Positions 937-32,213 of a stretch of 36,660 nucleotides of DNA are shown piece by piece. Below the pieces are notes generated by a model that was given only the letters and a program-made list of their open reading frames with translations, did no database searches and had not been told where the DNA came from. Position 1 is the first letter of the stretch; each line of letters opens with the position of its first letter. The translations under genes were made by a program, and so were the position numbers. Origin of the DNA: a virus (taxonomy: Duplodnaviria > Caudoviricetes). The DNA lies in IMG/VR virus record IMGVR_UViG_3300017903_000747, positions 1 through 36,660 of that record, one strand, 5' to 3'.

Positions 937-1138
937 TGGTACACCCTCTGGTACAGTTTGAGCGTGAGTCTACGTTGACAAGCGTGTATTGACAAGGGTT
1001 TTAGGGCAGGCGGATCAACGGCTTAGTGAGGCTAAGTTATTGATTGTTATGCGTTGTGAGTAAATCGGCCCCATGATGGGTGGGATCAGGGGCCATATAA
1101 ATCAGTCACTTACAGACCGATGGTACTCACTTGGCTCA
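937..1138. promoter_or_regulatory. Putative attP: arm-type repeats, IHF sites and symmetric core
   Basis: TGGTACA x2 (937-943, 949-955), TGGTACT (1121-1127); IHF-consensus matches at 1013-1025 (one mismatch), 1033-1045 and 1100-1112; palindrome CCCAT-G-ATGGG (1070-1080) inside GGCCCC...GGGGCC. Confidence 0.7.
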
Positions 1139-1297
1139 CTTCTTCTTTTTCTTGGCGGTCTTTGCGGCCTGCTTAAAGGCCTTGGCGGTGGGTGCGCCCT
1201 TGCTTCCCGGTTTCCTCATTTTCTCTTTTGAGCCTGCGGCGATTCTCTTCTTCTTTGCGTGGATGTTGGCATACAAGCCTTTCTTCTTTCCGGGCAT
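1136..1297 (-). CDS. Small Lys-rich basic protein (GLYANIHAK family of aquatic phages)
   Basis: MPGKKKGLYANIHAKKKRIAAGS...; ATG at 1297 coupled to upstream TAA (TAATG). Confidence 0.8.
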   Translation of the reverse strand: MPGKKKGLYANIHAKKKRIAAGSKEKMRKPGSKGAPTAKAFKQAAKTAKKKKK

Positions 1298-23875: not shown

Positions 23876-23911
23876 GAATTTTCCTTGCAAAACAGTTGCT
23901 TATGGCTGGCG

Positions 23912-23940
23912 ATTATGCCTGCACAATCCAGCGTTGACCA
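23912..23940 (-). promoter_or_regulatory. Possible late promoter upstream of terS
   Basis: TGGTCA-N17-CATAAT. Confidence 0.35.
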
Positions 23941-24303
23941 TACCACTAGCAGTTGTTTCTACACCTCAAAGCCCTTGCACCCACCAAGCTGGCACACCGG
24001 AACAGCCATGGTACACGCAAGCCGTTGATTTACTTACACTTTTCCAAGTATCCCGCTGATCCGGGAAAAAACTTTAATCCATATGGAAAGCGTACTTTTA
24101 TTTCCTCTTTTTTCCTTACCATAGGCATACATGACGCTTCTTTTTCATTTCCCTCTGGATATACTTTTTACTTGTCTCTCTTATCTCTCTCTCTAATTAA
24201 AAGAAAAAATATATATAAAACAAGCGCTTACACGCACCAATACGATTTCCACGGCCTCAGCACAAAATCAAGCCTCCCCGACTCCCCGGCACACCACGGG
24301 CAT

Positions 24304-24339
24304 AAAAAACCCCGCCGGAGTCTCACAACTGGGGCGGGG
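24304..24339 (-). terminator. Intrinsic terminator ending the early leftward operon
   Basis: CCCCGCC...GGCGGGG stem followed by T6 on minus strand. Confidence 0.7.
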
Positions 24340-24368: not shown

Positions 24369-24581
24369 TTACGAGCGCTGGTGCTCTTTGCTGATCTTAC
24401 CGATCTGGGACTGGTAGGCAAAGGTCTTGACTACCTCCTCCTTAGACAGCGTACCGGCCTCACGCTTGTAAGCATCAGGGCCATAGGTCTGAATCGTACC
24501 GCCTTGATCGAGGTACTCCTGTAGCGCCTTGGCGGTCGCCTTGCGCTGTGCCTCCTTGGCCTCGTTAGCTGACGGCCTCAA
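24369..24581 (-). CDS. SutA-like RNA-polymerase-binding small protein
   Basis: QRKATAKALQEYLDQGGTIQ resembles the SutA helix-GG motif; TTGA coupling. Confidence 0.6.
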   Translation of the reverse strand: MRPSANEAKEAQRKATAKALQEYLDQGGTIQTYGPDAYKREAGTLSKEEVVKTFAYQSQIGKISKEHQRS

Positions 24582-24757
24582 TGCAGTGTCTCCTCAAGCT
24601 CAAGGAAATCTACGTCGGCCCGACAGCACACCGACCAGTATTCGTAGCTGTGGCGCTCGACCATTTGATCGCCGTAGGGTTCGAGGTCGATGGTGATCTC
24701 CTCGAATACATCGCATAGCTTCCCGCACTTGAGGCATCGGAAATCAGTACCGCTCAT
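24578..24757 (-). CDS. Small Cys-rich (zinc-ribbon-like) protein, 59 aa
   Basis: Not in ORF track; MSGTDFRCLKCGKLCD...SVCCRAD...; AAGGAGG RBS. Confidence 0.7.
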   Translation of the reverse strand: MSGTDFRCLKCGKLCDVFEEITIDLEPYGDQMVERHSYEYWSVCCRADVDFLELEETLH

Positions 24758-24920
24758 CGCACACCTCCTTAATCTGCAAGTAGTCGCCGTGATCCCCGGA
24801 GGTCACTCTGGCGCAGTAGGCGGCCTCTGAGGCCAGAGCGTCCTTGTAGTCGTTGTCGCCGGTGTAGCCCAGCAGGGCCACCACCAGCGCCGTCAGCCCT
24901 ATCCCAATGATCGCCTTCAT
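24744..24920 (-). CDS. Small membrane-anchored/exported protein, 58 aa
   Basis: Not in ORF track; MKAIIGIGLTALVVALLGYTGDNDY...YCARV...VCDERY; ATGA coupling. Confidence 0.7.
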   Translation of the reverse strand: MKAIIGIGLTALVVALLGYTGDNDYKDALASEAAYCARVTSGDHGDYLQIKEVCDERY

Positions 24921-25159
24921 AGCTGCTTCCTAAACTCTCGCCTGATCTTGTGAACGGATGAGGGTGAAACATCCAGCACCTCAGCGATCTCACGGGCCAT
25001 GGCCCCTGCCTTGGTCATGCGGACGATGGTCTCGACCACCTTGATGTCCTGATCGAGCCTGATCCTGCTGGGCTGCCCCTTGGGCCTCACGCCCCTGAAC
25101 ATCTTCAGCAGTCTCCCGTCCACGGCCACCCTCGTGGCCTCATAGAATTTATCACTCAT
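24917..25159 (-). CDS. HTH DNA-binding protein
   Basis: C-terminal AREIAEVLDVSPSSVHKIRR; AGGGG RBS. Confidence 0.75.
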   Translation of the reverse strand: MSDKFYEATRVAVDGRLLKMFRGVRPKGQPSRIRLDQDIKVVETIVRMTKAGAMAREIAEVLDVSPSSVHKIRREFRKQL

Positions 25160-25184
25160 CTGTTGTCGATTCCCCTATTCGTTG

Positions 25185-25380
25185 TAATTAAGTTCGGCGG
25201 ATGGACAGATTTGGGCCTCGTGTTTGACTTGGGGCAGCCCGGTCATCTGTCCTGTTTCACGTCTGGTGCAAATAGCGCCAGCTCACACCGAGGCCGCCGA
25301 CCCCCTGCGGGAGATGCCCCTGAACTATCTCAGTAATTCGATGATCCGTTTCAGCACCAAGTGGATCAGGCTTGGTACAA
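25185..25380. ncRNA. Candidate structured non-coding RNA (unassigned family)
   Basis: Intergenic; at least six complementary segment pairs including two crossing (pseudoknot) pairings. Confidence 0.45.
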
Positions 25381-25420
25381 AAACTGCCGTATGCACAAAA
25401 AGGAAAAAAACATACGGCAG
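25379..25420 (-). terminator. Perfect 10-bp inverted repeat with 17-nt loop and T5; terminator or operator
   Basis: CTGCCGTATG-N17-CATACGGCAG (25384-25420) followed by TTTTT on minus strand. Confidence 0.5.
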
Positions 25421-25438
25421 CCCTGCTGTCTCAAAATG

Positions 25439-25753
25439 TCAGACCCTCCAGATCCTCACGGCCTTGCCGCCGTCGATGACCCGGTGGATGTGCTTTCGCT
25501 TCAGCTTTCGGAGCTGGTACTCGAGCGGTGCCGCGACGTTCCCGGCTTTTCTGCCCTTCGGGATCAGCAGCTTGACGCTGTCCCCGACCTTCATCTTGGC
25601 GGCCACAGCGGCCATGCCGCGCCGGAGCTTGGCGCTTGTCGGCACCTCGATCCCGGACTCGATGGCGATACCGTCCACCATCTTAATTTTCTCGCCGCGC
25701 GCGGCGGCGTATAACTCTGCGCGTCGATCCGCGCCGTATTCATTCAGTGTCAT
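25439..25753 (-). CDS. Small basic phage protein, probably DNA binding
   Basis: IESGIEVP...MKVGDS...VRIWRV family pattern; GGAGGG RBS before ATG 25753. Confidence 0.75.
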   Translation of the reverse strand: MTLNEYGADRRAELYAAARGEKIKMVDGIAIESGIEVPTSAKLRRGMAAVAAKMKVGDSVKLLIPKGRKAGNVAAPLEYQLRKLKRKHIHRVIDGGKAVRIWRV

Positions 25754-26643: not shown

Positions 26644-26750
26644 GTCCGATCTCCTTATCTATAAGTTATGTCAATTAACTTGACACCACTGATCATACAG
26701 ATATCTGGGGTAATGACAACAAAAAGTTGTCAATTAATGTAAATTTTTTT
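26641..26750 (-). repeat. Repeat block copy 1: early promoter, two palindromes, RBS and start codon
   Basis: Near-identical to 27709-27817; TTGTCA-N16-TATGAT; TGACAAC-N5-GTTGTCA (26714-26732); TGTCAA-N5-TTGACA (26669-26685). Confidence 0.9.
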
Positions 26751-26756
26751 ACCCAC

Positions 26757-26779
26757 AAAAAAGGCCGCTCACGCAGCCC
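26757..26779 (-). terminator. Intrinsic terminator between cassettes
   Basis: GGCTGC-GTGA-GCGGCC followed by T6. Confidence 0.75.
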
Positions 26780-27711: not shown

Positions 27712-27817
27712 GTCGATCTCCTTATCTATTGGTTATGTCAATTAACTTGACACCCCTAATCATACAGATATCTGGGGTAATGACAACCTTTAGTTGTCAA
27801 TTAATGTAAATTTTTTT
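27709..27817 (-). repeat. Repeat block copy 2: early promoter, two palindromes, RBS and start codon
   Basis: Near-identical to 26641-26750; palindromes at 27736-27752 and 27781-27799. Confidence 0.9.
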
Positions 27818-31016: not shown

Positions 31017-31048
31017 CTGAATTTGCAATCGCAGCTTGCGTCGTTATC

Positions 31049-31069
31049 TTAACAACACGCAGTTGTTAA
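31049..31069. promoter_or_regulatory. Operator-like palindrome
   Basis: TTAACAAC-N5-GTTGTTAA, same geometry as TGACAAC-N5-GTTGTCA in the repeat blocks. Confidence 0.65.
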
Positions 31070-31086
31070 TCAAACGGGAGGTAGAG

Positions 31087-31821
31087 TTGAAGCAGTACGA
31101 GATGGATCTGGAGCCAGCTCACGCGATGTTGAGCGCAAGCAGCGCACACCGATGGATTGCCTGCCCAGCTAGTGTGCAGGCTCAGGCCGGGCTGCCAGAC
31201 GAGGGCAGCCTCGCCGCCGAGGAGGGCACCGCGCTACACGAGCTGGCAGAGACCTGTCTTCGCAAGGGGCTGGAGCCTCACGACCTTATCGGTGAGTCCT
31301 TTAACGCATTTGAGATTGGGCTGGAGTACGCCAACTTGGCGAGGGTCTACGTCGATCACTGCCGCTCACTGCCCCAGACCCACACCCATGTCGAGCGCCG
31401 ATTGGACTACTCCATGTGGGCCGATGGCGGGTTCGGAACCGCAGACTACCTAGCGATTAAAGAGGGTGAGGCGTGGGTGGTCGATGCCAAGTTTGGCCGC
31501 AACCAAGTCGATGCCGACTGCGATCAACTCAAGTGCTACGCCCTCGGGGTCTTCAACGAGTTCGGGTTCGATGCCCAGCTCGACACCATCCACATGACCA
31601 TCGTTCAGCCCCGGCTGGGGCACATCGACACACACACCATGAGGTGCCCAGATCTGCTGGTCTGGGGCCGCGAGGTGGTGAAGCCAGCAGCCGAGGCCGC
31701 GCTGGGACAAAACCCGCCGTTCAATCCCGGCGAGTCGCAGTGCCGCTACTGTAAGGCCGCGCCAACATGCCGGGCGCTGGCGGCCCACGTTTTTGAAACC
31801 ATCGGAGAAGAGATCTTGTGA
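31087..31821 (+). CDS. DUF2800 / Cas4-like PD-(D/E)XK exonuclease, N-terminal part
   Basis: HAMLSASSAHRWIACP, EGTALHE, GTAD, VDAKFG, QLKCYALG, CRYC..C; TTG start with GGAGG RBS. Confidence 0.88.
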   Translation: MKQYEMDLEPAHAMLSASSAHRWIACPASVQAQAGLPDEGSLAAEEGTALHELAETCLRKGLEPHDLIGESFNAFEIGLEYANLARVYVDHCRSLPQTHTHVERRLDYSMWADGGFGTADYLAIKEGEAWVVDAKFGRNQVDADCDQLKCYALGVFNEFGFDAQLDTIHMTIVQPRLGHIDTHTMRCPDLLVWGREVVKPAAEAALGQNPPFNPGESQCRYCKAAPTCRALAAHVFETIGEEIL

Positions 31822-32213
31822 AAGACGTAGAACGTATGAGTGTGGAGGAGATCGCGGTAGTGCTTCCGCGCCTCGCCACCATCAAGAGCTGGTGCGAGGC
31901 CGTCGCATCACACGCAGAGAATCTGGCGCTGACCGGCGTGCCCATCGAGGGCTACAAGCTGGTGACCAGCCGCACAAACAGAAAGTGGGCAGACGATCAG
32001 GAGGCCATCCGCGCAATGGGGATGTTGACAAACGAACCCGTCTTTTCCCGCAAACCGATTTCTCCCAGCAAGGCAATCGCCATGCTGGGGAAAAACTGCG
32101 ACAGCGTGAACGCGCTGATCGTGAAACCAGAAGGCAAGCCGACTCTGGTGCCGGTATCCGATCGGAGACCAGCACTAGATATGTTGGATGGCTTTGATGT
32201 AATTGAAAATTAG
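31818..32213 (+). CDS. DUF2800 C-terminal-like protein
   Basis: GYKLV...RKWAD...SPSKA...KPEGKPTLVPVSDRRPA; GTGA coupling. Confidence 0.8.
   Translation: MKDVERMSVEEIAVVLPRLATIKSWCEAVASHAENLALTGVPIEGYKLVTSRTNRKWADDQEAIRAMGMLTNEPVFSRKPISPSKAIAMLGKNCDSVNALIVKPEGKPTLVPVSDRRPALDMLDGFDVIEN

Follow-up and report, generated by a model that had tools for sequence, protein, structure and literature searches.

A conserved, pseudoknotted three-way-junction RNA in an intergenic slot of one clade of marine phages

What occupies a gap of 279 bases (25160-25438) between two small minus-strand genes of a phage? The gap lies in a virus record of 36,660 bases, analysed over its whole length and called the window here; the record is complete, with direct terminal repeats, and a seawater metagenome is its best DNA match among sequencing runs and may be its source. 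No RNA run was found among the listed sequencing runs carrying the window. PHROG matches (43 proteins scanned) indicate a podophage-like layout: the minus strand carries primase, HNH nuclease, small unknown genes, terminase, portal and capsid, the plus strand DNA polymerase and helicase. None of these proteins is annotated as an integrase or as part of an immunity region. BLAST against 50,697 GenBank phages returned only six short chance matches, and the nearest terminases are about 50% identical, so that a cultured relative or host was not found. A preliminary description of the gap had proposed a novel multi-domain RNA with pseudoknots, and all of the complementary segments that it named are present where it placed them. 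The proposal stands for 25181-25320 on the minus strand, hereafter Module 1; the knots drawn there do not, and the second domain, Module 2, is independent of the first.

Relatives (n = 80) were collected via the terminase, and a DNA search with the gap matches 22 of the 80, always within 25160-25330 and never in the remainder. Further copies came from pattern scans of viral and metagenome contigs, the metagenome scan covering 41 of 64 parts; one pattern scan had 82 of its 100 loci discarded as low-scoring, and a second gave 22 full copies among 71 loci and one more that is cut (50.5 bits). Model R1, derived from the alignment, gives 140.6 bits to the window copy, the only one in the window, and 97 and 123 bits to held-out copies. 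Out-of-clade pattern matches, at most 30.6 bits against at least 97 for full copies, were dropped. Prokaryote genomes yielded four pattern matches, three of them chance and the fourth the 12,899-base contig of locus L011 itself, binned in a MAG and providing no host evidence. The RNA is found in 24 of the 26 loci (window included) that hold the block of helix-turn-helix (HTH) or 58-aa genes, and seven of nine near-complete records match, those seven having been chosen in the knowledge that they do. The complete, more distant relatives G001 and G006 have no match and, in the loci examined, are without HTH and 58-aa genes. Judged from these searches, Module 1 appears to be a single-copy RNA confined to one clade of marine phages.

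Two other elements were observed along the way. Three metagenome contigs (L208, positions 1110-1235, minus strand; L256; L257) carry a different conserved intergenic element that shares the first junction motif and the hairpin after it, scores 16-18 bits with model R1 and has no Rfam match; apparently structured, it is possibly another uncatalogued RNA. A related GC-rich element with a terminator-like start was caught by a pattern scan in the soil-type metagenome contigs L153, L163 and L232, and the two of these scanned against Rfam gave no match.

The fold of Module 1 is read from a main alignment of 22 distinct copies made with MAFFT, with no structure fitting, on which RNAalifold finds helices P1, P2 and P3 unaided (Table 1). 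Across 23 pairs and 22 copies, 98.4% of 504 cells are paired in this alignment; covariation in homologs, proposed earlier as a check, is present in 15 of the 23 pairs, which change on both sides (98 cells). Slid controls pair only 24-46% of cells, although this control is lenient, the helices having been picked after viewing these sequences. On a terminase tree of 19 carriers, 19 pairs undergo 54 pair-state changes with 2 of 361 cells unpaired, a count meant to allow for kinship but one that recombination between the terminase and RNA loci could inflate. The other check put forward, folding against shuffled sequence, came out at chance level for the single sequence: the 279-base gap has z of -0.45 on the minus and -1.57 on the plus strand and the 151-base element -0.45, with a folder that cannot form pseudoknots. 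P1 and P3 as first drawn are thus confirmed by covariation, and so are the basal 4 bp of P2, whose loop is free in length and sequence. The inner hairpin first drawn gives way in the relatives to the stem of P4, the loop of which makes the longer pseudoknot, PK1. A crossing pair suggested between 25214-23 and 25285-95 did not survive comparison: the window forms 7 bp, two close copies form 6 and 5, and the other 23 of 26 only 2-4.

Table 1. Features of the locus, listed in the direction of the minus strand
Feature	Coordinates	Strand	Basis or remark
Upstream 104-aa gene, no family	25439..25753	-	One of four gene types found at this place
Module 2, optional insert at upstream stop codon	25331..25442	-	Two bases instead in X2/X15 contigs; present in X5/X9
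Insert hairpin followed by five U, weakly terminator-like	25384..25420	-	X5/X9: one two-sided pair change, U run altered
Insert H-type pseudoknot, 6 + 6 bp	25342..25376	-	X5/X9 comparison
Module 1, whole, about 140 bases	25181..25320	-	Model R1 score, covariation
PK1 5' strand	25315..25320	-	Own-versus-swapped partner test; lost along with partner loop in L055 and L135
Possible 3-bp hairpin Pa, ending in invariant AGG	25304..25314	-	Possible in all 24 of 26 copies keeping the 5' module
Second, small pseudoknot: 2-bp helix, 25302-03 with 25292-93	25292..25303	-	Loop is the P1 5' strand
P1 5' strand, partner 25194-25200	25294..25300	-	100% of cells paired, 5/7 pairs with two-sided changes
5' junction strand	25282..25293	-	7/12 positions invariant (25 of 26 rows, of equal length, counted)
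P2 hairpin	25263..25281	-	Basal 4 bp conserved; loop length and sequence free
3' junction strand	25253..25262	-	7/10 positions invariant
P3 5' strand, partner 25203-25210	25245..25252	-	6/8 pairs with two-sided changes
P4 stem (25237-40 with 25213-16) and loop	25213..25240	-	86% of cells paired in the alignment fitted to it
PK1 3' strand, within P4 loop	25231..25236	-	Swap tests, fitted alignment
P3 and P1 3' strands	25194..25210	-	Covariation, 22-copy alignment
Unpaired ribosome-binding block	25160..25187	-	A/C-rich tail 25181-87, Shine-Dalgarno-like purines 25170-76, start codon 21 bases beyond tail
Downstream 80-aa helix-turn-helix gene	24917..25159	-	Pfam HTH_23 at cut-off; directly after RNA in 13/19
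Three small genes (58, 59, 70 aa) travelling with the RNA	24369..24920	-	58-aa gene directly after RNA in 6/19
Terminator-like hairpin and U run, end of block before terminase operon	24304..24339	-	By eye

PK1, which joins 25315-20 to 25231-36, was absent from the earlier reading. Its own partners score 130 against 107.3 +/- 4.8 for swapped partners (0/10000) in 23 of the 26 copies, two of the three left out being without the 5' module and the third cut; a thinned set (n = 17) gives 96 against 78.9 +/- 4.5. The partners change together and extend to as many as 11 bp in L032, and 84-85% of cells in the PK1 columns are paired in the model-fitted alignment, with one subclade out of register. Both strands are gone together in L055 and L135, which keep the core, and PK1 may only brace the junction core, which the invariant junction strands would form as a compact unit. 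The small second knot is G-C in 15 of 22 copies and C-G in 7 of 22, with three flips on the terminase tree, its support consisting of one varying pair. A knot between the P3/P4 bulge and the P4 loop and six other pairings were at chance, the best being linker against P2 (318/5000). Hairpin Pa is too short and too invariant for proof, and a hairpin at 25311-31 is of 4 bp and, by eye, present in some copies only.

The strand, initially left unresolved with the plus strand favoured for the first domain and the minus strand for the H-type knot, is read as minus: there one-sided changes give G-U wobbles, changes in the insert hairpin also give G-U, and the flanking genes are on the minus strand. 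A conserved short open reading frame is excluded as the cause of the conservation: core lengths fall into all three classes modulo 3 (13, 7 and 6 of 26) and any one frame is free of stops in 14 copies at most, so that Module 1 is not coding. That 25181-25320 of the minus strand is a real conserved structured RNA, with a three-way junction, two near-invariant strands and two pseudoknots, is well supported by these sequence comparisons.

The rest of the gap behaves differently from Module 1. The H-type knot and 10-bp hairpin of the preliminary description do exist, as a separate optional insert and not as part of the same RNA as the first domain. The X2/X15 contigs join 25330 to 25443 across two bases, a junction that would put a stop codon directly before Module 1. 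In the X5/X9 contig (31 changes in 311 bases) the 35 bases of the H-type knot carry none of the changes listed, and no covariation signal was obtainable for it; the other changes in the insert hairpin keep or add pairs, with wobbles that suit the minus strand. The related loci searched hold no match to Module 2, and a search of 126 bases for the insert gave no Rfam tmRNA family, with chance-level matches only at E up to 10. The sole viral match to the H-type motif, L286, lacks the second stem, lies inside an open reading frame and was set aside as chance. Module 2 seems to be a later addition at the same gene boundary.

The gene order around the RNA is primase, optional HNH, variable cassette, RNA, HTH gene, 58-, 59- and 70-aa genes, often a terminator-like site, and terminase. 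The RNA thus separates a hypervariable cassette from a conserved block, a position that would also suit a DNA-level signal or a recombination anchor at the cassette edge; such a role is extremely improbable, as the element is single-copy, has pseudoknots and carries strand-specific wobbles on the coding strand. A locus search by the protein of the HTH gene alone returned 0 loci. Within the variable cassette are two identical sigma-70-like promoters on the minus strand (26692-26779 and ~27760-27790), the one at 26692-26779 preceded by a terminator-like hairpin; relatives have zero, one or two copies ahead of differing small genes, and these promoter units look like moron-like modules. Elsewhere, a non-coding stretch of about 400 bases with an A/T- and AG-rich tract (23890-24300) lies ahead of the small terminase and is a candidate origin, late promoter or packaging site. 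The exonuclease family phrog_69 matches two consecutive open reading frames, 31036-31821 (profile 74-333) and 31818-32213 (profile 340-474), a candidate split gene or frameshift.

Position relative to the neighbouring genes is regular although the genes are not. In 18 of 19 loci the upstream stop codon falls 2-17 bases inside the model, the upstream neighbour being, by eye, one of four unrelated gene types. In 17 of 19 the next start codon follows the conserved tail by 19-21 bases; the next gene is either the HTH gene (13) or the 58-aa gene (6), two of the latter six having a start further from the tail. Since the genes on both sides vary, what the RNA keeps to is the slot, not any one gene. 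In L135 four tandem 11-base copies just after P1 stretch the linker to the ribosome-binding block, and L145 has two such copies, so the distance between RNA and block is not strictly fixed. The slot can also be filled otherwise. In L049 the flanking gene types and the ribosome-binding block are as elsewhere, but the place of the RNA is taken by a plain hairpin (about 21 bp) with a U run; L049 is the sister of the core-only L055 on the terminase tree (support 99/92). L050, whose contig is cut 135 bases upstream, has a different perfect hairpin (1-135) in the slot before the HTH gene, and both loci are nested in the carrier clade on that tree. Common to the occupants of the slot is a stable structure flanked by a stop codon and an unpaired ribosome-binding block.

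Start codons so evenly spaced, together with many invariant, aptamer-like junction bases and the terminator-like hairpin in the L049 slot, would fit a regulatory leader whose junction recognises a protein or small ligand and thereby controls translation of, or read-through into, the downstream block. This reading is rather doubtful: pairing between the ribosome-binding region and the RNA is without covariation (loop, 64 against 66.8 +/- 3.4 in a swap test, the pairing expected of an anti-Shine-Dalgarno), no U run follows P1, the ribosome-binding block persists without the RNA in L049, and the HTH gene is absent in 6 of 19 loci and is therefore not the required partner. A riboswitch expression platform was likewise rejected, swap tests of the ribosome-binding region being at chance and P1 lacking a U run behind it. 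An independent small RNA cut from the operon and acting in trans, as decoy, host-protein scaffold or antisense RNA of the P4 CI/P1 C4 kind, would explain why P1 and PK1 tie both ends together in the style of a stable RNA and why the element is retained while both neighbour genes change. It is nonetheless quite unlikely, with no promoter or terminator of its own found at the element, no recurring 9-base target in 17 long loci, and a plain hairpin in its place in L049.

P4 CI and P1 C4 are structured antisense RNAs with target sites on their own transcript, and Module 1 is like them a structured phage RNA in an operon. It differs in that no Rfam match, no complementary target sites and no annotated integrase or immunity region (43 proteins) were found. 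The earlier suggestion of a C4/CI-like immunity RNA finds no backing in a search for complementary 9-mers across 17 long loci from 13 phages, which gave only scattered ones, none recurring across subclades. The put RNA of HK022 is a promoter-proximal two-hairpin RNA that binds RNA polymerase, and a put-like antiterminator, binding the polymerase while nascent, would allow read-through of the terminator at 24304-39 into the terminase operon. Module 1 lies about 850 bases ahead of that terminator-like site before the late genes, a similar site being present in 8 of 14 relatives, window included. Even so, such an antiterminator is very unlikely: the nearest consensus promoter in the window is 1388 bases upstream and none was found in 14 of 20 loci, the RNA is much larger than the two-hairpin put, and a terminator-like hairpin can replace it.

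Searches against catalogued RNAs agree with the preliminary description, which could not match the element to a tRNA, hammerhead or riboswitch. Rfam 15 at its gathering threshold has 0 matches in the window, chance-level matches alone appear at E up to 10 on 801, 171 and 126 bases, in 10 homolog loci no match at E up to 1 overlaps the RNA, and ARAGORN finds 0 tRNA or tmRNA genes. The core consensus of hammerheads is CUGANGA before stem II; among the 26 sequences, flank included, it occurs in one, outside the conserved junction. In phage T7, RNase III processing hairpins lie between early genes and are, like Module 1, intergenic structures in an early polycistronic message, and the L049 replacement is likewise a long imperfect hairpin, whereas Module 1 is a knotted junction with invariant unpaired bases and not a long helix.

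Hammerhead and other self-cleaving ribozymes occur between phage genes (Perreault et al. 2011, PMC3088659; review PMC6765202). Like them, Module 1 lies within a polycistronic phage message next to genes that change, and its three helices meet at a junction where two strands are conserved, with an optional peripheral pseudoknot. Its junction strands differ in being longer (12 and 10 bases) and without a hammerhead core, and Module 1 has no Rfam ribozyme match. The double T-loop module, as described in 2013, also consists of two conserved strands flanking a variable hairpin, with AGNNA in one strand and UGNNA in the other (PMC3664808). The 3' junction strand (25253-25262) may hold a T-loop-like pentamer: it reads UGNNA in 18 of 26 copies and AGNNA in the other 8, in agreement with one pentamer of the rule. 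The 5' strand has AGNNA in 0 of 26, also when the extra U of the L1 stalk is allowed, and the 8 copies with AGNNA in the 3' strand do not overlap with the 5 that have UGNNA in the 5' strand. Membership in that module was rejected, as the defining pentamer pair is not there and no other parts of RNase P, rRNA or T-box are present; a likeness to RNase P and the L1 stalk, from comparison by eye with E. coli sequences, was dropped because it fails the published pentamer rule.

Orphan phage RNAs found by covariation and having no assigned function are a further parallel (Weinberg et al. 2017, PMC5737381; Fremin et al. 2023, PMC10690425). Fremin et al. screened IMG/VR, where copies of Module 1 also reside, and report 10,006 candidates (PMC10690425); the supplement tables searched give 0 sequence matches, and these tables may hold no sequences. 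The comparison also drew on PMC4810234, PMC4919913 and bioRxiv 10.64898/2026.10.21.760802, and no paper on the Module 1 RNA was found in the literature searched. By these comparisons Module 1 appears to be an uncatalogued RNA fold belonging to no Rfam 15 family, and the IMG/VR candidates of Fremin et al. may include it.

As to function, we tentatively prefer a boundary at which the early message is processed or stabilised. The RNA of about 140 bases, presumably transcribed from the minus strand, would act in cis as such a boundary; the transcript would be cut at the RNA, by itself or by a host nuclease, or shielded from decay, and the expression of the four-gene block behind it would thus be separated from that of the primase and variable genes that precede it. 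Cutting or shielding of the message is suggested by the stable structure that slot occupants have in common at this place, and the occupants are interchangeable: a plain hairpin in L049, the core only in L055, and an added hairpin and knot in the window lineage. Some points count against a boundary. The L049 hairpin fits a leaky terminator equally well and favours attenuation over cutting; a nuclease barrier alone would not need about 20 invariant junction bases; and the replacement argument comes from one locus (L049), L050 being cut short upstream.

The many invariant junction bases and the precedent of hammerheads in prophages suggest self-cleavage as a special case. Hammerheads are reported to lie beside prophage genes that change and to cleave polycistronic transcripts (PMC3088659; PMC6765202). 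Module 1 would then be a new class of self-cleaving ribozyme, with a three-way-junction core, about 20 invariant bases, the 2-bp knot and an optional bracing pseudoknot, and marine podophages would use self-cleavage to split the early message ahead of the regulator block. This version is unlikely. Known phage ribozymes are often multi-copy and widespread, whereas this RNA is single-copy and confined to one clade.

The reach of the finding is limited to one clade of uncultured phages. Within that clade there is a natural deletion series, from the full element through the core without the long pseudoknot (L055, L135) to a plain hairpin (L049). To our knowledge only about ten classes of self-cleaving ribozyme have been described, and if Module 1 does cleave itself it would be a new one; if it does not, it would still be a model for how lytic marine phages without an RNA polymerase of their own tune genes within an operon.
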